From IMG/VR virus record IMGVR_UViG_3300013947_000035, positions 14,009-78,008 of that record: DNA of 64,000 nt. One strand, 5' to 3'. The translations under genes and the position numbers were made by a program. The stretch comes from a virus (lineage: Duplodnaviria; Caudoviricetes). Under the pieces are notes generated by a model. It made no database searches and had not been told where the DNA came from. It saw only the letters and a list, made by a program, of their open reading frames with translations. Below, one piece after another: positions 4,866-21,888 of the stretch (the first letter of the stretch is position 1; each line of letters starts with the position of its first letter).

Positions 4866-4880
4866 AATACCACCTCTCTT

Positions 4881-5345
4881 TTATACAGATAGAACGTGAT
4901 ATGTTCCGAATTTTGCATAGAAAAAGTTCGTTTGCGTTATAATAAACTCTTTCAGTTCTTCTTCGGACATATTTCGCAATGTTTCGGCATCTTCTTTGCT
5001 GAATGCGTCACTGCTTGCAAGTTCTTCTATAAGGTCATATATGTTTTTGCTTGCCTTGCAATAATCGAATCCGATACAATCGAAAACTTCGTCGATGGTC
5101 TTGCATTTTTTGATAACGTCGATAACGTATTTTTCAAAGTCGTCGTCATCGAATACGTCTTTGTCGATATAGTCAACGTATATGCCGTTTACCCATATAA
5201 AGCAACCATATTCGTCAAGCGGTCTTAAAACTTTATTATAACTGTTTCTGCCTTGTTTTACAAGATAATTGAATTCGTTTTCGGTGTTGTCTTGCGGTTC
5301 GCTGATAACGACATCGAGGTCGTCGCTGATTTTAATTTGTTTCAT
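4881..5345 (-). CDS. acidic early hypothetical protein
   Basis: ORF 4881..5432; AAGGAG RBS favours start at 5345 (MKQIKISDD); upstream extension overlaps the promoter. Confidence 0.8.
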   Translation of the reverse strand: MKQIKISDDLDVVISEPQDNTENEFNYLVKQGRNSYNKVLRPLDEYGCFIWVNGIYVDYIDKDVFDDDDFEKYVIDVIKKCKTIDEVFDCIGFDYCKASKNIYDLIEELASSDAFSKEDAETLRNMSEEELKEFIITQTNFFYAKFGTYHVLSV

Positions 5346-5518
5346 AATCGTATCTCCTTTTGTTTCGGGGTTATCCCCTTTGATTGTCTTCATTATATCA
5401 TAATAGAAAACGCTTGTCAATAGGTTTATCAAAATTGTTTCGCAGATTTTCTCGGATAATATGTTACCGTGCTAAAAGGGTATAAGAAAAGAACGGCTTG
5501 CCGTCGCCGTTCTCGTTC

Positions 5519-5974
5519 TTAGTCTTCATATTCTTCGACTACTTGATTTTCAAATCCCCACTTACCAAAATACAAATTGTCTGCTCGTGGGGCTACAACT
5601 CGATTGTCCTCGTCGAGCATTGATTCCCATTCTGCGTACATATTCCAAATTGAAAACGCTCTCGATACATATCTTTGTCCTTTGCTGTTCGTATCATACA
5701 ATCCAACACAAACGGAAGCGGGGCAGATTGCTCTATCTTTGCCGTACTTGTTCTTAATCCAGCGTACGCAACGTCCAAACTCGATTCTGCAGCTGTCGCC
5801 AACGATGTCGTTGAATTCTTTGTTGATTTTCGCAAGCGTTTTTTCACCGCATTTCTTGCCGTCGTATTTCTTCAATACAAACTCGATAATAGGCGCAAGC
5901 TTGTGGAAGGTCGTCAAGTAAATAAGCGGGACTTCTTGGGTGCCATAGGATGCTGTGATTTCGTTCTTAATCAT
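5519..5974 (-). CDS. early hypothetical protein
   Basis: 151 aa; AAGGAG RBS; own promoter. Confidence 0.8.
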   Translation of the reverse strand: MIKNEITASYGTQEVPLIYLTTFHKLAPIIEFVLKKYDGKKCGEKTLAKINKEFNDIVGDSCRIEFGRCVRWIKNKYGKDRAICPASVCVGLYDTNSKGQRYVSRAFSIWNMYAEWESMLDEDNRVVAPRADNLYFGKWGFENQVVEEYED

Positions 5975-6175
5975 AATGGTTATCTCCTTTTGTTACGAGG
6001 TTTTCTTAACCTCTTTACATTTACAATTATAATACAATATCAAATGTTTGTCAATGGATTTTTATAAAGTTTTCAAAAAAATCGAGATTGTTTCGTCGTC
6101 GTTTCGTCGTCGTTTCGTCACCGTGCTATATGCGGCAGAGAAAACGGCGGGAGTTTTGTCCCGCCGCCGCCGTTC

Positions 6176-6415
6176 TCAAAATATTGCACCTGTCGCAAAC
6201 TTGTATGCGAGGTCTTCGATTTCGATTTCGTTATCGCCCACGTTCACAAACTCGTCAAAGCACCTGATGGCTTTCTGATGGTTGTGCCCAAAGCGTTCTA
6301 TCCATTCGCCCGTTCTCGGGGAATAACGCGTTACGATTGCGTTGCCGTTCTTGATGTCGACTTCGTACCTTACGTTGACTTTGGTTGCTTCGTCATAGCT
6401 TACTTTGATTATCAT
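6176..6415 (-). CDS. early hypothetical protein
   Basis: 79 aa; AGGAGG RBS; second gene of a two-gene cassette. Confidence 0.75.
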   Translation of the reverse strand: MIIKVSYDEATKVNVRYEVDIKNGNAIVTRYSPRTGEWIERFGHNHQKAIRCFDEFVNVGDNEIEIEDLAYKFATGAIF

Positions 6416-6418
6416 TGC

Positions 6419-6802
6419 TTACGCCTCCTTTGCGGTAATATTTACTGTCGCTACCCAACACACACTTCTAAACATAGCGTCGAGGTTGAGGCGGGGCTTG
6501 TTGATGTTCTTACGCACCCATTCGTACCATACCGATTTCGGCGTTTCGGTGTGCATTCTATAAAGCTTCGAGTCAAAGAATTCGTCGAGGTCTTCAAGAT
6601 TGCGCTTCAATTCGCCAATCTTGCGCCCGCTACGATTTGTCTTTTTAAGCTCTTTTGCGAGGTCGTAAGAAAAGTTGTAAAGGTCTTTGACGGATTGCAT
6701 TAGAATTGCGCCGTAAAGCGTCTCAGCGGCTTTGTCGTCTACGATATAGCTGCCGAAGCTTTGGTCGTCTTGTTCGATTGCTTGCGTTGTGATGTCTTTC
6801 AT
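6419..6802 (-). CDS. early hypothetical protein
   Basis: 127 aa; AAGGAG RBS; promoter at 6857-6885. Confidence 0.8.
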   Translation of the reverse strand: MKDITTQAIEQDDQSFGSYIVDDKAAETLYGAILMQSVKDLYNFSYDLAKELKKTNRSGRKIGELKRNLEDLDEFFDSKLYRMHTETPKSVWYEWVRKNINKPRLNLDAMFRSVCWVATVNITAKEA

Positions 6803-6988
6803 AAGTTATATCTCCTTCCGATTTCGGGCTTCGTTCGTTCCCTTATCTTCCCCTCCATTGTAATACCATACAAAATAATTGTCAAGCGATTTTTACAAAG
6901 TTTTTTTGCGATTTTGAAAATTTCTTTTTCGGCGGCGGGACAGTGATATTAATAGCACGGTGGCAGGATGAAAAGAAAAGCGGATGGC

Positions 6989-7381
6989 TTATACCTCCGC
7001 TTTCTCGTCTTCGTCTTCCTCGTCGTCAAGGATTTCTCTTATTTCGCTTCTTCCGAAGTCCTCGTCGTATTCAACTGCGTATTCGGCGATTTCACAAGCG
7101 AACCATCCGTCTGCATTGTCGGGGAAGTCGCTCGATACGACGTTGCCGTAACCATTGAACCAGAACCACATATGGTACGGATTGTAGTCACCGAACGCAA
7201 CCATATTCGCAATTTCGCTGGGCGTTTTCCCCGTCATAAGTTCGTCGAAGTCGTCTGTTGAATAGATATATTTCTCACCATTCACACTCTCTTGATATGC
7301 GTTGTTGACGTCTACGAGTTCGTTGTCGCTGAGTTCGTCGAGGATTGCTTCAATTGCTTTCATTTTTGTTTCTTGTGTCAT
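6989..7381 (-). CDS. highly acidic early protein (DNA-mimic candidate)
   Basis: 130 aa, about 35 D/E vs 7 K/R; contains F-x-F-N-G-Y-G-N motif seen in phage hypothetical proteins. Confidence 0.8.
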   Translation of the reverse strand: MTQETKMKAIEAILDELSDNELVDVNNAYQESVNGEKYIYSTDDFDELMTGKTPSEIANMVAFGDYNPYHMWFWFNGYGNVVSSDFPDNADGWFACEIAEYAVEYDEDFGRSEIREILDDEEDEDEKAEV

Positions 7382-7553
7382 AATAATAACTCCTTTTGTT
7401 TCGGTTGCTGTTTCTCAACCTCTTTACACTTAGGATTATATCACCATAGCAAACCGTTGTCAAGGGGTTTAGTAAAAATATTTTAGATTTTTTGAAAATT
7501 ATTCCGAAGCCACTAAACGCGATTTAAGCACGGTTACGGTTAAATTCGATAAC

Positions 7554-8003
7554 TTATTCGGAATCGATGCCAAAACCGCCTTGCTGTCGCTTACATTCGT
7601 TTCCCGAGTATGTTCCGATGATTGACAAGAACTCTTTCGTATAATTCGCTACGATTGTCTTCACTGCGTCTCTGTAAATTTCTTCAAGGTCAAGCATATT
7701 GCAAGAATGAGCAAGGTAAACGCAAATCATATTCCAAATCACCGCACCCGTAAACAGCACACCAAAAAAAACAGCGAATACGATTCCGCCAATGCGTTCG
7801 CCTTTGATAAAAAACAATGCCGATATACCTGCGACTACAAGCATAAACACGAGCCACTCTATCCAAACTCTAACGATGACTTTTCTACGTTGCTTTTTCA
7901 TACCGTGCTGGATTATGTCGTATTTGATTGCAGCTGCCGCCAATTCGTCTTTGAACTTCTGCGTTGCGATTCTGCATAAAATATCTTTTGCTGTCGTTTC
8001 CAT
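7554..8003 (-). CDS. two-TM membrane protein, near-leaderless
   Basis: Two hydrophobic segments (IEWLVFMLVVAGISALFF; IGGIVFAVFFGVLFTGAVIW); ATG 9 nt after the -10 box. Confidence 0.75.
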   Translation of the reverse strand: METTAKDILCRIATQKFKDELAAAAIKYDIIQHGMKKQRRKVIVRVWIEWLVFMLVVAGISALFFIKGERIGGIVFAVFFGVLFTGAVIWNMICVYLAHSCNMLDLEEIYRDAVKTIVANYTKEFLSIIGTYSGNECKRQQGGFGIDSE

Positions 8004-8108
8004 AGTGCTGATATTATACCACAAAGCCGCCGCCTTGTAAATAGGGTTAGCACGGTAACTTATATAAAAAAAGAACGGCTCGTCGCCGTTCTCGTTTTTT
8101 TGTTGTTA

Positions 8109-8357
8109 TTATTCAAGCGATATTGTTCTGATTTCGATTTCAATGGTTTCGTCATTGAATCCTTCTTCTGCCGTCCAATAAAAATACCTGTCGTTATTGT
8201 CTTCGATAACGCCGCTGTTGCCGCAACCATAATCGTTGATATACGTCTTTTTCATCGTTTCAAAAAACGCTTTCGCTTTCTCTTCCGTCGTAAATGCGTT
8301 TATGGTTGTGTTGCTTGTTCCGTCCGTTTCTGTTATCACTATGGCGTAAATGTCCAT
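8109..8357 (-). CDS. acidic early hypothetical protein
   Basis: 82 aa; AAGGAG RBS; own promoter. Confidence 0.8.
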   Translation of the reverse strand: MDIYAIVITETDGTSNTTINAFTTEEKAKAFFETMKKTYINDYGCGNSGVIEDNNDRYFYWTAEEGFNDETIEIEIRTISLE

Positions 8358-8533
8358 TGTTATTTCTCCTTTTGTTTCGGGGACTCTTGTTCCCCTTTGA
8401 ACAATTATATATTACCATAATATCAAATCATTGTCAAGCATATTTTGAAAATATTTTAGAATTTCTCAAAAACTTTTTGCCGCTCTCGATTCATAGCACG
8501 GCTGATAGGCAAAAAGAAAAGCGGCGACTTTCG

Positions 8534-9064
8534 TCAACCGCCTATCGATATGAGATTGTCAAGCCAAACGGTGATAAGTGTCGGCGCACCCGATTTCGAT
8601 TGCTTGCCAACCACTTTCTCGATGTCGTCTTTGTTGGTGAACTCCGCACCATTCACAAACCATTTCGATTTCGTCTTCGTTGCCGTTTTGCTGTTGAACA
8701 ACTTCACCTTGTACTTAATCTCGCCCTCTTTCTCGTTCTTGATAAGCAAGTTTTCGTAACCGCTCAATGGTGTGTCATATGCGCTCGTTCTCGATGGTGT
8801 GTCCTTATCCGCCGCCACAACTCTTGTGAGATAGTCCGATGTGTGTCTATAATCGATTCCAAGCCTTGCCACGCACTCGCTATACTTCTCAACCATTGTT
8901 GCCCCGTTCTCTTTCTCGTATCCTTTCAAAGCCCTTTTCTCGCTCTTGTACGCAACCTTAACATATGCGCCTTTCTTGATTTCGTTGCTATCAAACATCG
9001 ATTTAATGGTGTTCAATCTCTCGTCTGCGGTCATTCCGTCAAAAACAACTTTTTTCATAATCAT
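8534..9064 (-). CDS. basic early hypothetical protein
   Basis: 176 aa, Lys-rich; AAGAGG RBS; own promoter. Confidence 0.8.
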   Translation of the reverse strand: MIMKKVVFDGMTADERLNTIKSMFDSNEIKKGAYVKVAYKSEKRALKGYEKENGATMVEKYSECVARLGIDYRHTSDYLTRVVAADKDTPSRTSAYDTPLSGYENLLIKNEKEGEIKYKVKLFNSKTATKTKSKWFVNGAEFTNKDDIEKVVGKQSKSGAPTLITVWLDNLISIGG

Positions 9065-9260
9065 ACCTCTTTTGTTTTATTCCGTTGTCGGTCTTTCAAC
9101 CTCTAACACTTACGATTATAATACCATAACAAATAAATGTCAAGCATATTTCGCAATTATTTTAGACAATTTCATTTTTACCCCTACTGATGGGTAAAAT
9201 CGATTCATAGCACGGCTACTATTATAAAAAGAAGAACGGCTTGCTACCGTTCCTCTTATA

Positions 9261-9587
9261 TCAATCTGTTGTTCTCAAATAGTATTTTATATCTTCGCCT
9301 TTGAGATTGTTCATACACCATTCGTCAATGCGTTCCCATAGTTCGTTATAAACTCTTGCCAGTTTTTCGTTTCTTTCGTAGTGTTCCCAAATCTTCCAGT
9401 TCGTTGCCATTGACAATTCGGTCACATACACAACATTGTCTTTCCAGCTCTCGAACGCTCTCTCGAACGTTTCTTTTACCGCTTCGATACCAAATCTTTC
9501 CGCTATCGAAAAGTCCATATAAAAAGTCGTTTGCGGTTTGTAGCCTGTCATTTCTTCGATGTTCCAGTTCTTAAAAGCTTGTAGCAT
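9261..9587 (-). CDS. conserved phage hypothetical protein (TTFYxDFSIA...NWKIWEHY type)
   Basis: AAGGAG RBS favours start at 9587; motif recalled from gut-phage proteins of unknown function. Confidence 0.8.
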   Translation of the reverse strand: MLQAFKNWNIEEMTGYKPQTTFYMDFSIAERFGIEAVKETFERAFESWKDNVVYVTELSMATNWKIWEHYERNEKLARVYNELWERIDEWCMNNLKGEDIKYYLRTTD

Positions 9588-10028
9588 AATTTTAACTCCT
9601 TTCGTTTCGAGGTTCTTATGTCCTCTTTGATTGTTTTTATTATAACATAGTATCAAGTCGTTGTCAATAGATTTTGATAAAATATTTTTACAATTTCATT
9701 TTTGTGTCCTGCCGATACAAGCACGGTTGCCGCCACTGTATCCGCCGCCGAACAAAGAAAGAGGACGGTCACCTTTCGATGCCGTCCTGCCTTTCGTTGA
9801 CTTGTTGATTCCAGCGGTCTGACTCGCTGCGGATGGGTGTCAACTGTCCTCGCCTGTCCATTGAGTCGTAACAATTTCTTTCTTTTTCCCTTTGCTACGT
9901 CTATATATTATCACAACAACCAACCATTGTCAAGCGGATTAACAAAGTTTTTAATTTATTTTAATTCTTTTTAATTCGTTTTAATTTTTGGCTCGTTTTT
10001 AAGAAAATACTCTCTTTTGAATCTCACA

Positions 10029-10800
10029 AAAGAACCAAAAGAACAATAGAAAGAAAACGTGTACGTAGTACACGCAAAAGAAAGAACATAAGAAAAGGTA
10101 CAAATAACCATATTGACAAACGCTAAACGCTATCGACAAATGATTGATATGCCCTGCGCTGAATCCGTTCTCATACCCACTTACACTATATATAAGTAAT
10201 ATCTACTACTATGCACGGTTTCACAAAATCTCTATCCGCAAGAAAAGGTGCCCCAAAAGAATCAAAAGAACAATAGAAAGAAAAAGGTATACGTAGTATA
10301 CCTACAAAGAAAGAACATAAGAAAAGTTATGAAACATTTTTTCAAAAGGCAAAGTTATATACTACGTATATAAAAGCAAAATTTCCAAAACATCTTCCGA
10401 GTTCTTTTTTTGATTATTAATTGAAAAAAGTAAATATTATATACTACGTATATATTATTTACATTTTTCAGTTAATTTCGGCACGTTTTGTAAACTGTCC
10501 GCGCGTAAAGGAGCTTCTTTTTTTTATCTTCCCTCACGATTTTTCTTCCTTGCGCGTAGATAATTTATAAAAACACTAAAAATTAACTGAAAAATGTAAA
10601 TAATATATACGTAGTATATAATATTTACTTTTTTCAATTAATAACCGAAAAAAATTCTCGGAAGATGTCGGTTTTATCAAATCCTTTATATACAAAGTAT
10701 ATAATCCGAAAATCTGTCAAGTAGGTTTAGCACTCTTCTTATGTTCTTTCTTTTGAGGACGATACATAGTATCGTCCTTTTTCTTTCTATTGTTCTTCTG
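10029..10800. repeat. AT-rich nested direct/inverted repeat region (origin-like)
   Basis: Three ~70-bp AAGAACAATAGAAAGAAAA-[hairpin]-AAAGAAAGAACATAAGAA units (10029 and 10256 direct; ~10733-10800 inverted) flank a perfect 65-bp inverted repeat (10414-10478 / 10580-10644). Confidence 0.9.
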
Positions 10801-10924
10801 CTTCTTTTGTTGTTATCTTTTCTTGCAACAGTCTTTTTGTGAAACATTGCACGGCTGCCTCAAAACATAAAAAACGACGACGGATTCATTCCCGTCGCCG
10901 CTTCCGATTCTTGCTTGTGTTTGA

Positions 10925-11353
10925 TTAGTATTCAAGCAAATCTTCTAACTCGTATTCGAACCAATGCGCTATTGTCGCCATTGCAAACTCGAACTGCCAT
11001 TGCGCCAACCTTATCTTGTTAAATGCGCCGTAACACAATGGGTCATTCTTGTCCATTCCGTCAATGTCCATAGGATTGATTCCGCCGTCGTCTGCGAGGT
11101 TATCGTTAATTTCAAGACGATGCTTCTCAAAGTAGTCGATTGCGAACTTGATGTCACCATACATTTCTGTTCTGACTTTTTTACCATTCGCACTATCGAC
11201 AATGAGTTGTGTCAAATCGTCAAGGTTGTGTTCGATTGCCTCATTGTTCAAATACAAAACTGCTTCCGATACTGCATCGTCGCACAAAATGGAATCGTAA
11301 CCATTGCCGTTTGCTGTTGCGTTAAGTTGTTCTCTGCTGATTTTTTTCGCCAT
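10925..11353 (-). CDS. acidic early hypothetical protein
   Basis: 142 aa; GAGG RBS; own promoter. Confidence 0.8.
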   Translation of the reverse strand: MAKKISREQLNATANGNGYDSILCDDAVSEAVLYLNNEAIEHNLDDLTQLIVDSANGKKVRTEMYGDIKFAIDYFEKHRLEINDNLADDGGINPMDIDGMDKNDPLCYGAFNKIRLAQWQFEFAMATIAHWFEYELEDLLEY

Positions 11354-11507
11354 ATGGCATTTCCTCTGCGTTCGTGGGCTTCATTCGTTCCCTTTGAACA
11401 ATTCTATATTATCACCATATCAAATAATTGTCAACTACTTTTTTGTCATTTTCGTAAACTTTTTTCAAAATATTGTATTTCGGCGGCGGCTATGGTAAAA
11501 TACTCGT

Positions 11508-12278
11508 ATGAAAAAGCAAACTTACACCCCAACCAAAGCAACCACACAACTGATGGCGACCATAGCAAAAGGCGTAAACGAGAACCGCCGCCTGTCCGAT
11601 ATTGACGATGCGATACGCACGGTCGTGAACTCGTATACGGGATTGAATCGTCGCGAACGCTCTCGTCTGATGCATAATGCGTTCGATATGGCTCGTCGCG
11701 TTAAGGCTAACGGCATTGACGAACTCGCTTCCCGAACTGCTTACGACTCGTTTATGGCTACTTCTCGAAAGGTTATGGCTACGGCTGACACTCGGAATAA
11801 AATGGTTACGCTCTCGTCCGATATTGCTGACTTCGAAAACGAAAGAGGCTATGAACCGATATTCTTTGCTTGCTCGTATCATTCGAACTGCTCTTGCGGT
11901 CACGACGATTATCAAGGCAAAATCTACGTCGATAGGTTTTGGCGTACAAAAGTCAATGGCACGGATTATTATCGCGTACTCTCGTATATCAAGAATCGCA
12001 ATATCAAAACCGTTCAATCCGTCGTCAAGTCGCCGATATGGCTGACGACTCGTCCATACTGCCGCCATTACTTCGTCCCTGTTTCGACTGCTGATGTTCT
12101 CGGCTCGTCTCCGAAAAAGATACTCCACGACTACAACGCTTACCATTACACACCCGACTACTACACCAACGATGAATACTTCCGCATTCGTTCTGATGTG
12201 TATACTGAACTGAACCGACTCGTTCCTGCACCTGAATTCAAGACGATGATAGAACGCAGTCGCCGCCGCAGACATTAA
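11508..12278 (+). CDS. minor capsid / head morphogenesis protein (gp7/MuF-like)
   Basis: CSYH-x-C-x-C-x-H..YQGKIY and TRPYCRHYF metal-binding motifs typical of minor capsid protein 2 / gp7 C-terminal domains. Confidence 0.7.
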   Translation: MKKQTYTPTKATTQLMATIAKGVNENRRLSDIDDAIRTVVNSYTGLNRRERSRLMHNAFDMARRVKANGIDELASRTAYDSFMATSRKVMATADTRNKMVTLSSDIADFENERGYEPIFFACSYHSNCSCGHDDYQGKIYVDRFWRTKVNGTDYYRVLSYIKNRNIKTVQSVVKSPIWLTTRPYCRHYFVPVSTADVLGSSPKKILHDYNAYHYTPDYYTNDEYFRIRSDVYTELNRLVPAPEFKTMIERSRRRRH

Positions 12279-12331
12279 GCACGGCTGACGACGTAAAAGA
12301 AAAGCGACGGATTTGCTGCCGTCGCTCTTTT

Positions 12332-12583
12332 TTATTCCTCATCATCCTCCTCGTCTTCGTCCTCGTTGCCGATTCCCAACCATTCGTAAACAGTTTCGGA
12401 ATCGAACCTTAGTAAGTCGTTCAACTCTGTTTCGGTGATTCCGTCGGGATACATTTCTTCGAGAATGTTTTCGAGTTGTTCCCAACCGTCTTCGCCCTTT
12501 TCTTCCCAAATACGATTTGCCGTATCGACTGCGCCGCTCCAAAACTTAAAATTCGCCAAACTTGTTTCGCTGATAATTTTCAT
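12332..12583 (-). CDS. highly acidic early protein (DNA-mimic candidate)
   Basis: 83 aa, 27 D/E vs 5 K/R; F-x-FWSGA and TELNDLLRF motifs. Confidence 0.8.
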   Translation of the reverse strand: MKIISETSLANFKFWSGAVDTANRIWEEKGEDGWEQLENILEEMYPDGITETELNDLLRFDSETVYEWLGIGNEDEDEEDDEE

Positions 12584-12881
12584 AATGATTTTCTCCTTTC
12601 GTTTCGGGACTCTTTCGTTCCCTTTGAACGATTATATATTATCATAATACCAAACCGTTGTCAAGAGGTTTTTGAAAATATTTTAGATAATTTCATTTTT
12701 GCCCATTCAACGGGTAAAAATCACTTGTCGCTTTCGACAACGCTTTGCACGGGGCTTGTTTTCCAGCGACAAATTTTTTTTTGATGCGCGTTTCCAGCGA
12801 CAAGGGTTTTGCACGGTTGCGTTTTTCAAAGACAAAAAAAATAGCGGTCGATTTTCTCAACCGCTACTTCCTATTGTTTTT

Positions 12882-13181
12882 TTATGCAAGCAATGCAATT
12901 TGCGCTTCCGCTTTCTTCGATGTCATTATGCAACCTTTACCAAACACAACTTCGCCCGCTTTCTTTGCTTTTTCGATGTTCCCAACGAGTTCAAGAGGTA
13001 CGATTCCGTAAACCTCATAATCGCCAACACCCTCAACCCAAAAGCCCATATTAGTTTTGTTGTCGTAACATCTTCCGAGTTTGCAACCCCATTGAATTGC
13101 CCATACGTTATAAAGTCTTGAATCGATAACCATTGTGATGTCACCTTTGAAAAATCCTTTGTTACTTGTGATTGATGTCAT
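12882..13181 (-). CDS. early hypothetical protein
   Basis: AAGGAG RBS favours start at 13181 (MTSITSNKGFF); first cassette of the leftward array. Confidence 0.8.
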   Translation of the reverse strand: MTSITSNKGFFKGDITMVIDSRLYNVWAIQWGCKLGRCYDNKTNMGFWVEGVGDYEVYGIVPLELVGNIEKAKKAGEVVFGKGCIMTSKKAEAQIALLA

Positions 13182-13476
13182 AATCGTATCTCCTTTCGCT
13201 TCGGTTGCTGATTCCCTCAACCTCTTTACATTTACAATTATATCACCATAGCAAATATTTGTAAAGCGATTTTAGCATATTAAATCAAAAAAAATAATTT
13301 TTTTTCGAGCCCGTATCTGCGCCCGATTCCGCCGACGCACTCAAAGCCGATTCCTTGCACGGTAGCCGTTGAGACGAACACTTTATCTATGCCACGCCGA
13401 CACTGCCCTAATGCTCGCTACAAGCCGTTATATGCCCACACAAGCCCACAAGCGCAAGACCAAATAAGGACCGATA

Positions 13477-13838: not shown

Positions 13839-14597
13839 ATGAACGAAGAAGAAAAGAAGAGACTGAGTGACACTGAAGTCGATAGTGGCGAGAACGCGAA
13901 TGGCGCGGAATCGTCAGTAGCGAGTTCAGAAGTTGCGAACGGACAACCCGAACCGCAAGCAGAAACGGAAACGGAACCCACAACGGAACCCGAAGCGGAA
14001 GCGGCGTCAGTCTCAGATGATAGCGTTGACGGAAGCGAGAACGGACAACCCGAACCCGAACAGGAACAGCAACCGACGGAAAAGATGCTTACTCAGAGCC
14101 AAGTGAACGAACTTGTAGGCAGGGCGAGGCAAGAGGGGAGAGAGAGTGCCTTGAAAGAGCTATATGGACGTTATGGTGTAAGCGACGATACGGAGTTGAA
14201 TGACGTGTTTGGACGTGGACAAGCGTATATGTCTTTGGATGACGATTACAAAGTACAGCAAAGCAGCAACAAAGCGTTGTTGGCAGAGAATGCGTTATTG
14301 AAGACGAAAGTCGACGAGAGCAGGTGGGAAGATATAAAAGCAATCCTCGGCAGCAAGAATTTGGACATCACGCCTGAGAACATTGAAGCTGAAATCCCGA
14401 CGCACCCCGAATGGCGACAAGGCAATAGTGTCAATGTGGTGCAAGATTCACAACAGCAAGCAGTACCGCAACAGCAGCAACAGCAACAGCAAGCGGTATT
14501 GAGAAAGCTTGGAAGCGAATCGACGACAAACGGCGACGGTAGCGAAGAAGAGGAAGAACAAGAACGAGCATTTAGATTGTTCGGCTTTAATAAATAA
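13839..14597 (+). CDS. capsid scaffolding protein
   Basis: Acidic disordered N-terminus; KMLTQSQVNELV motif; coiled coil; just upstream of the capsid gene. Confidence 0.8.
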   Translation: MNEEEKKRLSDTEVDSGENANGAESSVASSEVANGQPEPQAETETEPTTEPEAEAASVSDDSVDGSENGQPEPEQEQQPTEKMLTQSQVNELVGRARQEGRESALKELYGRYGVSDDTELNDVFGRGQAYMSLDDDYKVQQSSNKALLAENALLKTKVDESRWEDIKAILGSKNLDITPENIEAEIPTHPEWRQGNSVNVVQDSQQQAVPQQQQQQQQAVLRKLGSESTTNGDGSEEEEEQERAFRLFGFNK

Positions 14598-14619
14598 GAG
14601 AAGAAGGAGAAAGCGAATT

Positions 14620-14982
14620 ATGACTCTTGAAGAAGCGAAAGCGGCTATCGAGGATTTGAAAGCTCAAGGCGAAACCGAAGACGATATACTCAAAGTTTTG
14701 TATCTTATGTTCACAAAAGGTGAATATGATGTCGAGACATTGAGAGCGCTTATCGGCATTTTGGGCTACGAGTTCACAGACGAATTCGAGGCTATGTCGG
14801 ACGACGACAAGAAGACGAAAGGCTGGGAAAAAGACGATAAGCCCGCAGAAGGCGTTGACAAAGAAGACGTTGAAAAGGCGAAAGAGTTCGGTGACGACAA
14901 AGGCGAAACGGCTGACTCGAATCCGAAGCTGTCCGAAGACGACGAAAGAGAAAAAGCAAAGAAATTGTTCGGACTTGCATAA
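14620..14982 (+). CDS. acidic head-associated protein ending in KAKKLFGLA
   Basis: AAGGAG RBS favours 14620; lies between scaffold and major capsid. Confidence 0.75.
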   Translation: MTLEEAKAAIEDLKAQGETEDDILKVLYLMFTKGEYDVETLRALIGILGYEFTDEFEAMSDDDKKTKGWEKDDKPAEGVDKEDVEKAKEFGDDKGETADSNPKLSEDDEREKAKKLFGLA

Positions 14983-15083
14983 GCCCGATAAAAGATAAAG
15001 GGAAAATACGGCACATAGAAGACGCAGACCTCGTGACAAGATAAAATCAATATAAAATAAAATAAAAAAACGAGGTAAACTTT

Positions 15084-16346
15084 ATGCCTAACAGCAACAT
15101 TGAACTTGTAACCAAGTATAGCACTGAGGCTTGGGATACTGTGTATAAACAAGAATCCGTTACGAGCCTTTTGGACACAAACCCCGCACTTGTCAGATTT
15201 ACTGGCGCAAAGACAGTTAAAGTCGGCAAATATCAAAACGGTGGTTTGAGCAACTATTACAGAAACAACAACGCAGGCGGTCTCGGCGACACCAGAATTC
15301 CGCAACCCGCAGGCACAGAAAAATTCGTAGGCGCATCCGACTTTGGTTATCAAAAGAGCGGTATGAGACTTGTCTGGGAAGAGTTCACGCTCAGATGTGA
15401 CCGCGCGGCGGCATTTGAAGTTGAGCAATTCGATAACGAGGAAAGCGGCGGCGAGCTTGTTGGTCTCGGCGTAACCGAAATCAGCAGAACGACAATCGTT
15501 CCCGAAGTCGACGCATATTGTTTGAGTACAATCGCAGGTTATGCACTTCCGAGCGCAGTCGTATCTGGCGATTATTCGGCAGACGGCGCGACGCCGTTGA
15601 AAGCATTGAACGCGGCGTTCCAATATTTTGAGGAACACGAAGTCCCCGCAGACGACCAAATCGTTTTTGCATCACCCGCGTATATGAACGCACTTCGTAA
15701 CACGAAGGAAGTCACGAAATTCCTCGCGCAAGAAGACTTCACCGCAAACAAGGATATCCGCTTCAAGATTGAAAAATATGAAGGCAGAACAATCGTTACG
15801 GTTTCCCCGCAAAGACTTCGTACGGATATTCATCTTTATGACGGCGGTTATGAATGGGAATCTGGTTCGAAAGCAATCAACTTCATCATCTGCGCAAAGA
15901 GTGCGATTATGCACGTTGTCAAATATGAGAAAGTGAAAGTTATCGGCGGCGATACCAACCTTGCGGCACGTGGCTTCGACGGCTATACCATCTTTGCAAG
16001 AATTTATCACGACGTATTCGTACCCGACAACAAGAGAGTTGCGATTTACGTCAATACCGTTTCTGAGGAGGCTGCGGCACCTGGTATGGAACTCAATATC
16101 CAACTCACGAAGGAAAACAAGATTAAGTCGATTACGACCGTTCCTGGCAATGAACTTTGCTTCGTTGGTAAATCCACCGACACGAAGTCTGACGGCGGTA
16201 GCGGTACGACCACAAAAGATGTTGGTGATACTCTCAGCAACTTCACTTTGGCACATATCGGCGACGCGGTTTCGGCAACGACCAAATTCTACGCAATCGA
16301 TAGCAGCAAGAAAGTCTTGGCGACCTACACTGTTACTATCGGCTAA
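15084..16346 (+). CDS. major capsid protein (HK97 fold) with C-terminal extension domain
   Basis: TGAKTVKV, TL..DRA..FEV..FDNEE and IVPEVDAY motifs; ~90-aa beta-rich C-terminal tail. Confidence 0.85.
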   Translation: MPNSNIELVTKYSTEAWDTVYKQESVTSLLDTNPALVRFTGAKTVKVGKYQNGGLSNYYRNNNAGGLGDTRIPQPAGTEKFVGASDFGYQKSGMRLVWEEFTLRCDRAAAFEVEQFDNEESGGELVGLGVTEISRTTIVPEVDAYCLSTIAGYALPSAVVSGDYSADGATPLKALNAAFQYFEEHEVPADDQIVFASPAYMNALRNTKEVTKFLAQEDFTANKDIRFKIEKYEGRTIVTVSPQRLRTDIHLYDGGYEWESGSKAINFIICAKSAIMHVVKYEKVKVIGGDTNLAARGFDGYTIFARIYHDVFVPDNKRVAIYVNTVSEEAAAPGMELNIQLTKENKIKSITTVPGNELCFVGKSTDTKSDGGSGTTTKDVGDTLSNFTLAHIGDAVSATTKFYAIDSSKKVLATYTVTIG

Positions 16347-16376
16347 TAACCAAATAGCGGCGTAAACTAATCGCTT

Positions 16377-16408
16377 GGGGCGAATTCGATAAAGGGTTCG
16401 CCCCTTTG
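16377..16408 (+). terminator. intrinsic terminator after the capsid gene
   Basis: GGGGCGAAT...GTTCGCCCC-TTTG. Confidence 0.7.
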
Positions 16409-16436
16409 ATTAAAAAGACGGCAAAGGAGCGCAAAT

Positions 16437-17339
16437 ATGGCGACAGAAAAAAAGATTTGGAAAGATGTCCATTCGTCCTCGGCAAAGGAAAGAAAGACAC
16501 CTGAAATAGGTCAATTTGAAGAAGCGGCGGGTGGTGGTACTCCGATGGCGAAAGGTCAAAAAATTGACCACGTAGCAGATTCGCCGAAAGAAGCTGCTGA
16601 ATATAGAGCGCATCATCCTGGTGCGTTGGTGAGAGTGAAACAACCGCGTGATACGGACGGACAATTCACATATAATTCTGCGAATAAGCGTGAACTCGAA
16701 TACGGACCGTCACGAGGAAAGACGACGCCTCCGTTCTTGACTGGTTTCAAGGTCACGTTTGCGAAGAAGTCGGGCAAAGGCGTTGTTATCACACCAGACA
16801 ATAAAATGTTCAAAATGCCCGATAGTATTAAGAGCAAAGACGATTTTGAAAGGGCATACATGGAATATCGCAAAAAAGGCGATAAGTTCATGGGCGTTAG
16901 TAAGGAAGGCAAGGAAATTGAAGCAGGTTCTTTGGAAGATAGAGCCATAGGACGTGGCGGAAAAGCGGGCAAGGACGTAAGAGAGGTCACTCGTGGACGT
17001 CTCGAATCGTATGTTGAATCGGCGAAGAAGATGAAGATGGCTAAGAACTTCCGCAAAAAAGCAGAAAGCACTACGCCAGCACCGACGCCGACGCCGACAT
17101 CGGCAACAACACCGTCTCCGACACCGAAAACAGAATCCACATCGCCTAAAGGCAGTGTCGATTATTCGTTGGCAAAATCCGACCCCGATAGATTCATTGA
17201 AGAAAATATGGGCGAAATCGATAAGCTTATTCAAGAAGCGGACGCGGCTGGATACGAACTCGATGCAGACGCTATGGTTGACGCGATTGCGAGCGGCGAA
17301 TTCAAAGACTTTGACGCAATTAGGGCGACTCTCAAATAA
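16437..17339 (+). CDS. putative virion-associated protein with PRDxxGQF motif and Pro/Thr linker
   Basis: QPRDTDGQFT; TPAPTPTPTSATTPSPTP linker; acidic C-terminal domain. Confidence 0.75.
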   Translation: MATEKKIWKDVHSSSAKERKTPEIGQFEEAAGGGTPMAKGQKIDHVADSPKEAAEYRAHHPGALVRVKQPRDTDGQFTYNSANKRELEYGPSRGKTTPPFLTGFKVTFAKKSGKGVVITPDNKMFKMPDSIKSKDDFERAYMEYRKKGDKFMGVSKEGKEIEAGSLEDRAIGRGGKAGKDVREVTRGRLESYVESAKKMKMAKNFRKKAESTTPAPTPTPTSATTPSPTPKTESTSPKGSVDYSLAKSDPDRFIEENMGEIDKLIQEADAAGYELDADAMVDAIASGEFKDFDAIRATLK

Positions 17340-17405
17340 TGGGGTGAGGACGATAGAGAGGCGAGCAATACTGTGTTTGCCTCTTTATTTTTTCAAAGGT
17401 GAGTT

Positions 17406-18605
17406 ATGGCAGAAAACAAAGACATAAAAGACGTGACCGAAGAAGTTATTAAATCGGATAATGAGAAAGGTAATCCATATCACAAGGGCAAAGGTTCACC
17501 CGAAGGCGGTCAATTCACATCAAAAGATAGTGCGGATTCGGGTAGTAGAGACGGGAAAACATTGCCTTCATTTTTGAAAAAGAAAGGTGAGGCTGTCGCT
17601 TCGGACAGCGATAAAACTCTTCCGAGTTTCTTGAAGGAAAAAGCAAAAGACGGGGAAAAGAAAAAAAGCAGACTCGACATTATTCGAGAAAGAACACAGG
17701 CACCGTCGCTTAAGAACTTCTTAAAATATAGGCAACAACGGCTCGAAAAGATGCGTAAACGGGGCGATTTTAATGCCCGCGTAGACGAACACACAGAAAA
17801 ACTTGTCAACGAAAAAATTACAGAACTTGCAAAATCGTCGAGATTATGCTCAAATGTAAAATTGGAAAGTTTGGATTCGGTTTTGAAAACGGGGCTTAAA
17901 AATCAATTTGAGATTCAATCAAGTCGCGGTATGTATAGACCGACGGAAAGAATGAAGGCTACAAATTTGCTGTTCGGGACAGATAAGATTCAGGTTTTTG
18001 AAGACGGCGATGAAAAACACATGGGTTGGTTTGATTCTGGAACAGGGAAAATCAATCCTGAAACATTCGCATTTGAAAAGTATGGGAATCTTGAAGCCGC
18101 AGACCTAAAAACTGCTATAAAAAACACGTCTTGTTCTCATTATGGTGAAACAAAAGTCTTTTTTAAGGATTATATTAGAGATAGGACCACATTTACTCTT
18201 AATGATTCATTGAATGAAAAAGACGAATCTCAGCCAGGTTATTTGAATAGCCCCGCAGATATAGGCGTCTGGGGGGGCGCGTGGATGAAAAACGATAAAT
18301 TGGATAGAATCAAAAAATGTAAGACATTGCACGAAGCGGCGAGCATTATGGGGTCGAGTGCTGGCTATGACGAAGCTCAAATTCACGGCGTATTAAAGCC
18401 CGAAGATGTTGCCTATGTAAGTTTTATGTATGAGAGTGATATGAGTACATATAACGGCGTTAGGGCTATAAAAACGGCGACGGATATGGGGATACCTGTT
18501 CTGTTCTGCGACAGTGAAGGGCAGGTAAAACGAGTAACAAACGGAAGCGAACTGACAGAGTTTTATCGCCAAATCGAGAGCGAACCATATGAAGAACAAA
18601 AATAA
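17406..18605 (+). CDS. DUF3626-like protein (putative ADP-ribosyltransferase-fold effector) with N-terminal NPYH..GGQF motif
   Basis: LKNQFE..SSRG, R...LLFG, EKYGNL, HYGE, RTTFTLNDSL and YDEAQIHG match the DUF3626 motif order as recalled. Confidence 0.6.
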   Translation: MAENKDIKDVTEEVIKSDNEKGNPYHKGKGSPEGGQFTSKDSADSGSRDGKTLPSFLKKKGEAVASDSDKTLPSFLKEKAKDGEKKKSRLDIIRERTQAPSLKNFLKYRQQRLEKMRKRGDFNARVDEHTEKLVNEKITELAKSSRLCSNVKLESLDSVLKTGLKNQFEIQSSRGMYRPTERMKATNLLFGTDKIQVFEDGDEKHMGWFDSGTGKINPETFAFEKYGNLEAADLKTAIKNTSCSHYGETKVFFKDYIRDRTTFTLNDSLNEKDESQPGYLNSPADIGVWGGAWMKNDKLDRIKKCKTLHEAASIMGSSAGYDEAQIHGVLKPEDVAYVSFMYESDMSTYNGVRAIKTATDMGIPVLFCDSEGQVKRVTNGSELTEFYRQIESEPYEEQK

Positions 18606-18612
18606 AAATCTT

Positions 18613-18649
18613 AACCCCATTGACAGCAATCAGTGGGGTTTGATATTAT
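18613..18649 (+). promoter_or_regulatory. promoter embedded in an inverted repeat (operator and/or terminator)
   Basis: AACCCCATTG-N8-CAGTGGGGTT contains TTGACA(18620); TGnTATTAT(18644). Confidence 0.75.
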
Positions 18650-18681
18650 AAAAAAACAAAAAACAGAAATGGAGGCAGAAA

Positions 18682-19008
18682 ATGAACGATTTGAAACTTG
18701 AATACGCATCGCAGGGCGAGCCTGGTAATTATAAAAATTACGTTTTTAAGACTCGTTTCGGCGATTATTATATGGCAATGAGAGCAGAAGGTAATGTTAT
18801 GTTCTTGGGTAAAGAAATTTTTATAAAAGTTATGGACACTCTCACGCCTGTTACAGACGAAGATTATAACGAAAACGCAAAAGAAGCAGAAAGACTTTTG
18901 GTCGATGTTATATCAAAAAAAGATATGAAAAGAATTAAAGTGATTGTCGTGAGTAGTTTGTACCCGAATTATCAGGGTGACAAAGACAATCTTTTGTTTA
19001 GAATCTAA
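18682..19008 (+). CDS. hypothetical protein, possible immunity/antidote
   Basis: 108 aa; GGAGG RBS; between the putative toxin and the ADP-ribosylhydrolase. Confidence 0.75.
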   Translation: MNDLKLEYASQGEPGNYKNYVFKTRFGDYYMAMRAEGNVMFLGKEIFIKVMDTLTPVTDEDYNENAKEAERLLVDVISKKDMKRIKVIVVSSLYPNYQGDKDNLLFRI

Positions 19009-19031
19009 AGTAAAGGAAGGGAAAACACAAT

Positions 19032-19826
19032 ATGTTAGGAGCAATTATCGGCGATATTGTGGGTTCAAGATTCGAATTCCACAATATAAAAACAAAAAAA
19101 TTTAAGTTATTCACAAAAGATTCGCGTCCTACTGACGATTCAATTATGACGGCGGCAGTTGACGATTGTTTGCTCAGAGGTTATCAAAACAATCCCGCAG
19201 ACATTGTAAACACGCTGAAGGAATGGGGCGAGGGATATCCGAATGCAGGATATGGTGCACGTTTCTATTACTGGGTGCTTGGCGATGAGACAGAGCCGTA
19301 TTATAGCTACGGTAACGGAGCGGCAATGCGCGTGAGCGGTGTCGGCTGGTTCGCAAAATCTGAAGAAGAAGTAAAAATGTTGTCGAAAGCGGTTACGGAA
19401 GTGACTCATAATCATCCCGAAGGTTTGAAGGGTGCGGAAGTGACAGCTATGTGTGTATATTATGCACGAATCGGAAAGAGTAAAGAGTTCATCCGCGATT
19501 ATATTTATTCGCAATATCCCGAAACGGCGACGCTCGATTATGAAGAATTGAGAAGAACGTATTATCACGGTGAAGAAATTTGTCAGAATACGGTCCCGCA
19601 AGCATTGTTTTGCTTCTTGATTTCGGACTCGTTTGAAGATTGTTTGAGAACGACTATATCTATTGGCGGCGACTGCGATACGACGGCGGCGATTTCGTGC
19701 GCGGTTGCGGAAGCGTTTTACGGGATTCCGCGAGATATTGTAGACGAAGCTTGGGAATATATTCCGCAAGATATAAGAAAATTGCTGACTGTTTGTTATT
19801 GGAATTATCGTACTATAAGAAAGTAA
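19032..19826 (+). CDS. ADP-ribosylglycohydrolase (DraG/ARH family)
   Basis: MLGAIIGDIVGS, TDDSIMT, SYGNGAAMR, TH.HPEG and GGDCDTTAAI canonical motifs. Confidence 0.95.
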   Translation: MLGAIIGDIVGSRFEFHNIKTKKFKLFTKDSRPTDDSIMTAAVDDCLLRGYQNNPADIVNTLKEWGEGYPNAGYGARFYYWVLGDETEPYYSYGNGAAMRVSGVGWFAKSEEEVKMLSKAVTEVTHNHPEGLKGAEVTAMCVYYARIGKSKEFIRDYIYSQYPETATLDYEELRRTYYHGEEICQNTVPQALFCFLISDSFEDCLRTTISIGGDCDTTAAISCAVAEAFYGIPRDIVDEAWEYIPQDIRKLLTVCYWNYRTIRK

Positions 19827-19830
19827 GAGA

Positions 19831-19859
19831 TTGACAATCGATTTTGCCTTTTGTATAAT
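19831..19859 (+). promoter_or_regulatory. perfect sigmaA promoter
   Basis: TTGACA-17 bp-TATAAT. Confidence 0.85.
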
Positions 19860-19890
19860 AATCATATAAAATATTCACGAGGAATAGTAT

Positions 19891-20505
19891 ATGATTTCAA
19901 GCAATACAGAAGGCAATCGTTATCACGACGAAGATGGGAAATTTGCGAGCGCACCGAATGGCGGGGCGAAAACAGACGATAAAAAGATAAAAGCTAATAC
20001 AGCGTTCAAGAAGATTGTTACGCCCTCTACGTCGACATCGCAATCGGGAACGGTAACGGCGGCAACCAACGGTCCGAGAAAAGAAAATCCCGAACTAAAA
20101 GCAAAATTGAAAGGCACGATAAATATGCTCGAAGGTTATCGTGGCAAGCCCGAAGGTACATATAATTTGTTGACGGGTGAAATGGTGAACTTGTCTGACG
20201 GTTTTATGGTGACATTTCACCAAAATGAAGCCGACGAAAACGGACATTATAAGAGCCATTTCGGAAGATATACAAGCGATGAGTATGACCAAACCGCATA
20301 TGATTTTGCTATGGATAACGATGCAGAAGTTTTCGTGGGTGTTTTTGATAATGAACCCGAAATCAGTTTCAAAGTAAAAACAAAAGCGCAAGCAAAAGCA
20401 CTTGCAGAAAAGTATCACCAAGACAGTTATTGGGATAATGCGGCGGGGAAACTTAAAAAGAATAAAAAACGCGATATAAGAAAAAATCCAATGCAAGGAG
20501 AATAA
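19891..20505 (+). CDS. protein with N-terminal YHDxxGKF motif and SAM-lyase-like C-terminal domain
   Basis: GNRYHDEDGKF; VGVF...EISFKV..KAQAKALAEKYHQDSYW resembles the phage SAM lyase G-x-aromatic / E-x-S/T / Q-D pattern. Confidence 0.5.
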   Translation: MISSNTEGNRYHDEDGKFASAPNGGAKTDDKKIKANTAFKKIVTPSTSTSQSGTVTAATNGPRKENPELKAKLKGTINMLEGYRGKPEGTYNLLTGEMVNLSDGFMVTFHQNEADENGHYKSHFGRYTSDEYDQTAYDFAMDNDAEVFVGVFDNEPEISFKVKTKAQAKALAEKYHQDSYWDNAAGKLKKNKKRDIRKNPMQGE

Positions 20506-20509
20506 AAAA

Positions 20510-20767
20510 ATGGACGCATATGAAAGATATCTTGAATATGAAGATAAAATATATGAACTCGAAGACGCAGAGAGGTGGGATGAAGCAAAGAAACTCGAAG
20601 ACGAACAACTTGCCATTCGCAACAATGAATTCACAAGAAAAGATTGGGAACGTTTGATTGACGACGCAAAATTCGATAAGCGTGCTAAATTCGAATATAC
20701 CAAAATGATGAACGCAAAATTCCCCGAAGAAGATGAGGCAATGCGTTTGTTCGGATTCAAGAAATAA
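20510..20767 (+). CDS. small acidic protein ending in EAMRLFGFKK
   Basis: 85 aa; AAGGAG RBS; C-terminus resembles the scaffold C-terminus. Confidence 0.75.
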   Translation: MDAYERYLEYEDKIYELEDAERWDEAKKLEDEQLAIRNNEFTRKDWERLIDDAKFDKRAKFEYTKMMNAKFPEEDEAMRLFGFKK

Positions 20768-20806
20768 GTTCTTGACAGCGTTTTGTGTTTGGTCTATACT
20801 TGAATT

Positions 20807-20980
20807 ATGGACGAAATGACAACGACAACAGAATCGACCTCGAACTCGACTTCGAATCATATTGATTTAATTTCGGCTCATTTGGCGAAATTGAAGAAAA
20901 CCACAGATAGTATGCCCGAGAACGTATTAAAGTTGTTCGGGCTTTTGCCTAAAAAGAAATCAGATAAGGAAGATAAGTAA
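20807..20980 (+). CDS. 57-aa leaderless ORF containing VLKLFGL (absent from ORF track)
   Basis: TTGACA(20772)-17-TATACT(20795), ATG 6 nt later; translates MDEMTTTT...ENVLKLFGLLPKKKSDKEDK. Confidence 0.6.
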   Translation: MDEMTTTTESTSNSTSNHIDLISAHLAKLKKTTDSMPENVLKLFGLLPKKKSDKEDK

Positions 20981-20982
20981 CG

Positions 20983-21888
20983 ATGCCTTTCATTGACAAT
21001 ATTAAGTTTAACGAAATCTTGAATGCGTCTCGTAACGGCAACGAGAAAGCGATGGCTATAATGCAGAGTATGCGCAAAGGCGGCACGCAAGACGACATAG
21101 ACCGCCTTGTAAACGCTTATTACGACATTTCGACCGTTCCTGAACAACAACAGCAACAAGCTGTTGTTGCCGCTGGAGACGAGTCTCAACCGAGCGTAGA
21201 AGCCGTTATGGACGACGTAGCGCCCCTTATACCCGAAGGCGAAGAAAACACGGGTGAAATTGACGAGTCGCTCGTGACCGAAAATGATGTAGAAGCGGAT
21301 ACGCAAGAAGTCGATATTTCGGATATACTCGGTAAAGAGACTGAAGGCTTGTTTGATGAAGACGAATACGAAAACGTGTCCTTTGGCGATTTCTTGAAGA
21401 ATAAGAGGTCGGACGCGAACAGAGCGGTAAAGAACGCAGATTATTTCAAAGCGTTCGATATGGACGGCAGGAATAAATATGCGGACGGACTTATCGACAC
21501 TTATCGTCACAAGTTCGACGGCAATCTTCGCGACATCGAAAGAGATTACGCTGACAAGAATCAAGCGATTGCGGGATATACACAATCCGTGAACGATATG
21601 CTCGACGACGATATCGAATTTGCGTCGGATTCGGCAACGAAAGCGTACAATGATTTGATTGACAACGACTCGGCAATGAGTGCTTTCGGTCGCTATTGGG
21701 ATTCTGACGACACCAGCGCGGTTTTAAGCACACTTCAAGAGTTGGTAGGTCAATACGGTAAGGCAAACGTTATCGCGGCTCTAAACGTCATTAAAGGCGA
21801 TAACGACGCGCATAGGGATTATCTCAACAACTCGGTCGACGCGAATATAAGCAAGTATTCGAAAGCGGTCGATAAAATACTTCGGTGA
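20983..21888 (+). CDS. acidic hypothetical protein, possible internal virion/ejection protein
   Basis: 301 aa, D/E-rich, helical, in the morphogenesis region. Confidence 0.7.
   Translation: MPFIDNIKFNEILNASRNGNEKAMAIMQSMRKGGTQDDIDRLVNAYYDISTVPEQQQQQAVVAAGDESQPSVEAVMDDVAPLIPEGEENTGEIDESLVTENDVEADTQEVDISDILGKETEGLFDEDEYENVSFGDFLKNKRSDANRAVKNADYFKAFDMDGRNKYADGLIDTYRHKFDGNLRDIERDYADKNQAIAGYTQSVNDMLDDDIEFASDSATKAYNDLIDNDSAMSAFGRYWDSDDTSAVLSTLQELVGQYGKANVIAALNVIKGDNDAHRDYLNNSVDANISKYSKAVDKILR

Follow-up and report, generated by a model that had tools for sequence, protein, structure and literature searches.

The C-terminal ends of scaffold proteins bind the capsid or coat protein in phage P22 and in the herpesviruses. 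Engineered P22 nanoreactors are loaded with cargo fused to the C-terminal coat-binding helix-turn-helix domain of the scaffold, and the nested scaffold/protease pairs UL26/UL26.5 of herpesviruses and C/Nu3 of phage lambda share their C-terminus through in-frame overlapping genes. The prohead core of phage T4 consists of the gp22 scaffold, the minor core proteins gp67 and gp68, and the internal proteins IPI-III and Alt with a capsid-targeting sequence, which is N-terminal, cleaved by the gp21 protease and thought to act through the scaffold core. In the scaffold of staphylococcal phage 80alpha and in CpmB of its satellite SaPI1, the last 16 residues form an 11-residue amphipathic helix and a 5-residue hook with an RIIK motif (PMC5644958; PDB 6B0X, 6B23). 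The R-I-I of the 80alpha hook inserts into a hydrophobic capsid-protein cleft, tails of this type bind the capsid N-arm helix and the A/P-domain cleft, and CpmB competes with the scaffold via the same tail (PMC5644958). Here we analyze a window of 64,000 nucleotides, bases 14009-78008 of the 78,008-bp uncultured gut phage record IMGVR_UViG_3300013947_000035 (rated complete by CheckV), in which the C-terminal tail of a scaffold-like protein recurs at or near the end of three further proteins encoded around the major capsid gene.

Family 1 encapsulin cargo proteins combine a folded domain, a disordered linker of 10-40 residues and a C-terminal hydrophobic/Gly peptide that docks inside an HK97-fold shell (PMC11202242); the consensus of this targeting peptide is L(F)-x-V(I)-G-S/T-L(I) (PMC11202242). 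A 2026 paper with a procapsid-encapsulin model raised the co-assembly of cargo-like proteins in procapsids as an open possibility (PMC13669383). Our literature search found no description of the LFG motif considered here, or of a phage that equips several unrelated proteins with the tail of its scaffold. The phage itself has no close relative at the DNA level among 50,697 deposited phage genomes, and no cultured phage in INPHARED encodes either a scaffold of the window's type or p2, the second protein with the tail.

A shared C-terminal tail on proteins of the head module

The motif [RK]-L-F-G-[FL] lies at or near the C-terminus of four plus-strand open reading frames (ORFs) around the major capsid gene, which begin at 13839, 14620, 20510 and 20807; the tail sequences that an earlier note on this DNA had written down for them are all found there. 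The scaffold-like protein (252 aa; 13839-14597, plus strand), encoded two genes 5' of the capsid gene, ends in EEEQERAFRLFGFNK (14550-14594, plus strand). The 120-aa p2 (14620-14982, plus strand), encoded between the scaffold and capsid genes, ends in DDEREKAKKLFGLA (14938-14979, plus strand); its gene starts at the ATG at 14620 and not as the longer TTG ORF at 14509, which corrects the earlier account of this gene. The third carrier is an 85-aa charged protein (20510-20767, plus strand) ending in EEDEAMRLFGFKK (20726-20764, plus strand). In the fourth, a 57-aa protein (20807-20980, plus strand) with the C-terminal sequence ENVLKLFGLLPKKKSDKEDK, ENVLKLFGL (20918-20944, plus strand) is followed by LPKKKSDKEDK. 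The motif is thus at the C-terminus in the scaffold, p2 and the 85-aa protein, and internal in the 57-aa protein, in which a basic tail of 12 residues comes after it. All the tagged genes of the window sit in the head module.

The shared tail is real, conserved and statistically solid. The six-frame translation contains 29 LFG triplets, and only these four fall within 12 residues of the stop codon of a real plus-strand gene; likewise, the relaxed pattern [RK][LIM][FYM]G[FLM] picks out just these four when applied to the 595 ORFs, each 40 aa or longer, that all six frames of the 78,008-bp genome contain. Per-protein shuffling (20,000 shuffles) yields a mean of 0.04 C-terminal matches per genome, with a maximum of 2. 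In BLASTP comparisons of the scaffold, p2 and the 85-aa protein, the alignment is limited to the last 13-14 residues or is absent altogether, and hence these proteins are not paralogs and have the tail alone in common. A position-specific scoring matrix (PSSM) was trained on the scaffold and p2 tails only, with 925 minus-strand ORFs as background. It gives scores of 30.5 to the window's 85-aa protein and 30.7 to another 85-aa protein, both outside the training set, against a minus-strand maximum of 11.9 and a range of 19-34 for the tagged proteins. It also recovers untrained tagged proteins from the same genomic position in two related loci, L009 (21.8) and L011 (19.4).

Conservation and co-variation of the tail across related loci

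Related loci (designated here by L numbers) were collected by way of the capsid protein (11 loci, 36-75% identity) and of p2 homologs (10 more). Across them, all scaffold and phage-borne p2 homologs end in (L/I/M/A/W)-(F/Y/M)-(G, once N)-(F/L/M/I/K) plus 0-5 residues, and the sole tail-less p2 homolog among the fetched loci comes from a bacterial genome (L020). In 15 related genomes, the tail is present on each scaffold and each p2 homolog. The gene order scaffold-p2-capsid is constant in all related loci that extend across the three genes. The scaffold homologs of 13 related loci all keep the tail, the Gly of which is invariant in alignment A2. The scaffold-like protein of the window has a layout of an acidic disordered N-terminus, a conserved core, a Q/P-rich linker, an acidic run and the C-terminal tail.

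The wider p2 family comprises 514 clusters at 90% identity, with [LI][FY]G[FL] no more than five residues from the end in 117 of 120 members among the matches listed. At 50% identity there are 379 clusters, a number that shows the p2 system to be widespread; about 90 of 150 representatives have the tail, and approximately 55 of the 150 are diverse relatives devoid of it. Among 67 aligned members that have the tail, G118 never varies and A113 hardly ever does. Among the relatives of the 85-aa protein, 12 of 16 end in EEDEA[MK]RLFG[FL]xK. The 57-aa ORF has homologs in L004, L001 and L002 (BLASTP E-values 7.6e-21 to 2e-10) and in L019 that keep the LFG together with the basic tail, and positional analogs in L017, L018, L009 and L034. 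Conservation in homologs, the absence of which the earlier note had named as fatal to its proposal, is seen in the relatives of all four proteins.

Further carriers in related phages are proteins of 47-119 aa, including a half-ferritin-like one, and even close relatives differ in how many small tagged proteins they have and in which ones these are. The L017/L018 clade has five tagged proteins: the scaffold (SMFGL), p2 (KIFGLD), and proteins of 69 aa (KMFGL), 47 aa (KMFGIKEK) and 107 aa (RMFGL...).

The scaffold and p2 tails of a given genome resemble each other in detail. The residue preceding the Gly is the same in both proteins in 15 of 16 genomes, being F in nine, Y in three (L011, L022 and L034) and M in three (L021, L024 and L033); the permutation p-value is 2.8e-5 ignoring relatedness and 0.002 after collapse to 10 rough clades. 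At the extreme, KAMHLYGLDK ends both the scaffold and p2 of L011, and RLMGIN ends both in L033. That the two tails change together from genome to genome supports a single shared partner. Inspection by eye of the capsid N-arm in these few, related genomes revealed no clear pattern of substitutions tracking the F, Y or M state of the tail.

The capsid protein as the candidate partner

The presumed receptor of the tail is the major capsid protein (420 aa; 15084-16346, plus strand; phrog_422, E-value 4.3e-53), which is assigned the HK97 fold. An AlphaFold2 model of its ortholog from L004 (predicted template modeling score, pTM, 0.70) retrieves HK97-fold phage capsid proteins in Foldseek searches with E-values down to 1.5e-10, and the nearest annotated capsid proteins, at 24-30% identity, belong to phages of Streptococcus, Listeria, Lactococcus, Clostridioides and Ruminococcus. 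In four cultured phages that have these nearest capsids, the annotated scaffold has an ending of a common form, hydrophobic-G-[LV]: AAFGLKQ in ORF5 of Lactococcus phage 1358, QALGLK in Streptococcus phage IPP26, EILGVK in phiCD119 and AAMGLPPEK in RG-TP1. Among the annotated genes of phage 1358, only ORF5 has such an ending; it lies directly 5' of the capsid gene and is annotated as a 'putative phage structural protein'. As these phages share the capsid family and not the scaffold bodies, the scaffold ending appears to track the capsid family, and the capsid protein is therefore the likely partner. The window's own scaffold-like ORF has only a weak PHROG match, to phrog_492 (E-value 0.0034).

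The tail itself is predicted by AlphaFold2 to be a helix with a short extension: in p2, an 11-residue helix (residues 106-116) precedes FGLA, and in the L004 tail an 11-residue helix (residues 14-24) precedes FGLDK, with a predicted local distance difference test score (pLDDT) of 53-73. Searches of the PDB with profiles of the scaffold, p2 and capsid protein returned nothing significant. We found no prohead protease among the ORFs scanned, which is consistent with the scaffold leaving intact.

The p2 domain, ADP-ribose-removing enzymes and the modularity of the tail

In the AlphaFold2 model, the 67-residue helical N-terminal domain of p2 (pLDDT about 85) is followed first by an acidic linker that is disordered (pLDDT below 50) and varies in length across homologs, and then by the tail helix. 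Foldseek and VIA-align searches with the model retrieved generic helical matches only (best Z 5.2), and the ESM Atlas gave viral hypothetical proteins only.

The relatives of this N-terminal domain that lack the tail are informative. In P0243 and P0302 it is fused to an ADP-ribosylglycohydrolase (ARH; E-values 2.3e-73 and 2.6e-77), and in P0345, P0358 and P0369 to microbial PARG, with a Macro domain in addition in P0358. In the bacterial locus L020, the gene for the domain (10001-10465) stands between ARH and Macro genes. On these associations, the p2 N-terminal domain (window 14620-14820) is best described as a hitherto unnamed partner domain of ADP-ribose-removing enzymes, which appears to have acquired the scaffold tail in these phages. 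More speculatively, given the fusions in other genomes, p2 may tether or regulate ADP-ribose-removing enzymes inside the capsid, for example the phage's own ARH (19032-19826, plus strand; Pfam PF03747, E-value 9.8e-33), which is encoded in a variable cassette and is a possible p2 partner.

In P0280 and P0343, a single chain without the tail contains the p2 N-terminal domain and, behind it, the domain found in the 85-aa protein, raising the possibility that the window's p2 and 85-aa protein work together. Since both domains also exist tail-less, the tail is an add-on.

Half-ferritin-like proteins and mimics of the capsid N-terminus

Tagged proteins of 107 aa (L006, L008, L017 and L018) and 119 aa (L011) keep an E...ExxH signature, the di-iron ligand pattern of a two-helix ferritin unit, with E17, E48 and H51 invariant; examples lie at 15297-15620 of L017, 7255-7578 of L006 and 6292-6651 of L011. 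Their matches to Pfam Ferritin (E-values 5.8e-3 and 4.4e-4) are below the curated cut-off. A profile of these proteins matches the second half of bacterioferritin (E-value 1e-3) and the designed helix bundle 4EH2 (E-value 2.8e-7) in the PDB, and, weakly, the encapsulin cargo proteins EncC (E-value 0.3) and EncFtn (E-value 0.9). By these sequence features, they look like half-ferritins. No half-ferritin was found in the window's own genome. A further viral match, in L029, was rejected because it lies inside an unrelated 907-aa protein.

In the small tagged protein of 42-59 aa, the peptide with which the capsid protein begins is copied close to the N-terminus (GNNIELVT versus MPNNNIELITKYS). In the window, the corresponding segment of the 57-aa protein, TSNHIDLISAHL (20849-20884, plus strand), resembles the capsid N-terminus PNSNIELVTKYS; the window's copy, SNHIDLIS, is a degenerate form of the one that is clear in relatives (GNNIELVT). 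Further such mimics lie at 9273-9428 of L001, 14255-14434 of L002, 15151-15294 of L017, 17891-18019 of L009 and 10795-11067 of L034. In 515,430 six-frame codons from 11 loci, a relaxed pattern for this peptide matches only capsid proteins, the small ORFs and one stray minus-strand ORF. A shared N-terminal element is also known from 80alpha, in which the capsid protein and the scaffold have a Prp cleavage motif in common (PMC5744158).

Proposed function of the shared tail

Several proteins share the peptide, which behaves as a module, is conserved, co-varies between carriers and has a predicted helix and hook. Based on these features, we propose that the last ~15 residues of the scaffold constitute an amphipathic, acidic helix in which an Ala is conserved, followed by a hook, [RK]-(L/I/M)-(F/Y/M)-G-(F/L/M), and that this element most likely docks the scaffold, within the procapsid, to the inside of the major capsid protein with its HK97 fold. 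Copies of the tail that follow a flexible linker on p2 and on the 85-aa and 57-aa proteins would let these occupy the capsid sites of the scaffold, so that they would be built into the procapsid beside it as minor core or cargo proteins. We consider it probable that all of them dock on the capsid protein in this way and co-assemble into the procapsid; the choice of the capsid protein as partner and the placement of the tagged proteins inside the procapsid are inferred. Later, the tagged proteins might exit together with the scaffold; alternatively, they might remain until they are ejected along with the DNA.

A more far-reaching version, which we hold to be less likely than not, is that the scaffold docking peptide serves generally as a tag for cargo loading that can be swapped between proteins, much as the targeting peptides of encapsulins do but in a natural virus, with some of the cargo staying in the head and being delivered with the DNA; such a system would be a living intermediate between scaffold and encapsulin cargo, in line with the procapsid-encapsulin model (PMC13669383). 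The loaded proteins would then include the half-ferritin of the relatives, the partner domain of ADP-ribose enzymes and the mimics of the capsid N-terminus, all as part of the same tentative proposal. The earlier note had likewise suggested a portable capsid-loading tag, a proposal that is supported in part. Its portability is borne out, in that the tail is a conserved module and not the remnant of a duplication (only the tails align, and the domains occur with and without it); as for loading, there is no enzyme among the window's tagged proteins, which might just as well be auxiliary core proteins or, like CpmB, competitors of the scaffold.

Several observations weigh against docking on the capsid and cargo loading. 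The window's tagged proteins are small and helical, without a recognizable enzymatic domain, and the notion of p2 as a dedicated ARH adaptor is weakened by the fact that p2 is universal and ARH occurs only in the window's genome, L004 and L006-L009. The scaffold label of ORF 13839, which we accordingly call scaffold-like, derives from position, composition and a tail shared with annotated scaffolds, and hhalign comparisons of the window's scaffold profile with the scaffolds of IPP26, 1358 and RG-TP1 did not find homology. A natural read-through in L004 (A6), in which the tail is followed by a 34-residue linker and the capsid protein, was folded with AlphaFold2: the capsid part is well folded, and the tail has a pLDDT of 53-62, which does not exceed the 62-73 of the tail in the model of p2 by itself. 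With the PSSM, the score of the 57-aa ORF stays under 12 as the acidic/basic helix is missing; it has the hook, not in terminal position. The agreement between tails also has its exceptions: L032 is mismatched, with LFGL in the scaffold and MMGL in p2, and the third and fourth tagged proteins follow the scaffold less strictly (Y, Y, F, F in L034; Y, Y, M in L011).

Three other explanations were considered. One retains the binding site and changes the purpose: the tagged proteins would be auxiliary scaffold (core) proteins, or competitors tuning timing, capsid size or shape, or scaffold release, comparable to gp67 and gp68 of T4 and to CpmB. The universal presence of p2 in this phage group and its constant place between the scaffold and capsid genes are what one would expect of a core assembly gene, and the small, helical, charged character of the window's tagged proteins, devoid of an enzyme domain, points the same way. 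There is, moreover, a precedent in 80alpha, where a second protein competes through the same tail, and mimicry of the capsid N-terminus by the 57-aa protein would suit an assembly role. Yet the p2 N-terminal domain family is otherwise fused to ARH, PARG or Macro domains and is present in a bacterial chromosome as well, which is unexpected of a dedicated scaffold; a half-ferritin bears the tag in relatives; and the small tagged proteins vary in number and identity among close relatives in the manner of accessory cargo. We therefore regard a purely auxiliary role as unlikely, while crediting it more than either of the remaining explanations.

The common partner of the tail could instead be the portal or a further head protein, or else a chaperone or protease of the host, in the last case with the tail acting as a C-terminal degron for clearing scaffold-type proteins once assembly is over. 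Other systems do use short hydrophobic C-terminal peptides after acidic runs as handles, no confident docking of the tail emerged from the fused AlphaFold2 model, and with no prohead protease among the ORFs tested, the phage might rely on its host to remove the scaffold. What makes such a partner distinctly improbable is that scaffold C-termini are established capsid-binding elements in P22, 80alpha and herpesviruses, that phages with only the capsid family in common and unrelated scaffold bodies keep the same ending, and that every tagged gene lies in the head module. Finally, the motif is short and the tails are in compositionally biased acidic regions, so that it could be a by-product, devoid of shared function, of recent local duplication, gene conversion or chance in acidic low-complexity tails. 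Its conservation, with an invariant Gly, in hundreds of diverged relatives contradicts this; the rest of the genome offers no further matches, shuffling yields only the low mean given above, and the PSSM separates the tagged proteins from the minus-strand maximum. We consider such an origin scarcely credible.

Comparison with described systems

By analogy, the closest known case to the proposed docking on the capsid is the 80alpha scaffold with CpmB, a parallel rather than a proof. In both, an unrelated second protein bears the tail of the scaffold, the tail is at the scaffold's C-terminus, and the gene is near the capsid gene. The predicted tail also has a comparable build, an 11-residue helix with a 4-5-residue end (pLDDT 53-73) that presents one basic and two hydrophobic residues, and both systems have an HK97-fold capsid and a separate scaffold, with a phage protease not found here. 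The hook, however, is [RK]LFG[FL] and not RIIK, so that only the residue pattern is similar. The carriers in the present case are the phage's own genes and not those of a satellite, number three to four per genome and include domains otherwise linked to enzymes.

The architecture of p2 (a folded domain, a disordered linker and a C-terminal tail) is that of the Family 1 encapsulin cargo proteins, and the tag of the relatives on a protein of ~100 aa with two helices and E...ExxH, a weak half-ferritin-like match, recalls the encapsulated ferritins (EncFtn), a classic type of encapsulin cargo. Unlike in the encapsulin targeting peptides, a hydrophobic residue directly follows the Gly and L-F precedes it, and the shell is a true phage capsid, with portal and terminase. 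T4 likewise has several small phage proteins beside the main scaffold in the prohead, with a short portable peptide setting their incorporation, whereas the present tag is C-terminal and is the scaffold's own tail, and no counterpart of the gp21 protease emerged from the ORF scan. UL26/UL26.5 and C/Nu3 likewise put one C-terminal capsid-binding sequence on two proteins, in contrast to the independent copies on separate, non-homologous genes seen here. The P22 nanoreactors resemble our proposal in using the scaffold's C-terminal element on other proteins for procapsid loading; they are man-made and employ a helix-turn-helix, whereas the phage tail would be a natural peptide of 15 residues. If loading is true, it would represent a natural 15-residue tag for packing proteins into phage capsids and provide a concrete test case for the evolutionary link between scaffolds and encapsulin cargo. 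The packaged, and possibly injected, proteins of uncultured gut phages would then become recognizable directly from genomic data.

Other features of the locus

The portal gene (835-2517; phrog_533) is separated by ~9 kb from the rest of the head module, which begins at 11508; the intervening region consists mostly of small minus-strand genes (window 4500-13220). The large terminase is encoded farther away, at 56697-58238. Directly 3' of the small tagged genes is a conserved gene for a 301-aa protein (20983-21888, plus strand) to which no function is assigned. The small tagged genes of the relatives are invariably directly 5' of this gene, the product of which has 279-301 aa; in L001 and L019, only its N-terminal part of 122-126 aa is present.

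The region that separates the capsid gene from the small tagged genes (window 16437-20505) is a variable cassette that occupies the same position in L004-L019. Its content includes ARH in some genomes, a Zeta-toxin-like kinase with a Macro protein in L019 and PDDEXK_5 in L018. Several unrelated cassette proteins have in common an N-terminal G-N-x-Y/N-H-x(3,9)-G-x-F, possibly a second shared tag; it is found in the products of 17406-18605 and 19891-20505 in the window, 5882-6907 and 8826-9359 in L019, and 9694-10677 in L034. In L024 (1391-3555), the capsid gene is apparently split into a part for the N-terminal 132 aa, a gene for an HNH/NUMOD4 endonuclease and a part for a further 297 aa starting with MSTEVDAYC, which may reflect the insertion of a homing endonuclease or an intron.

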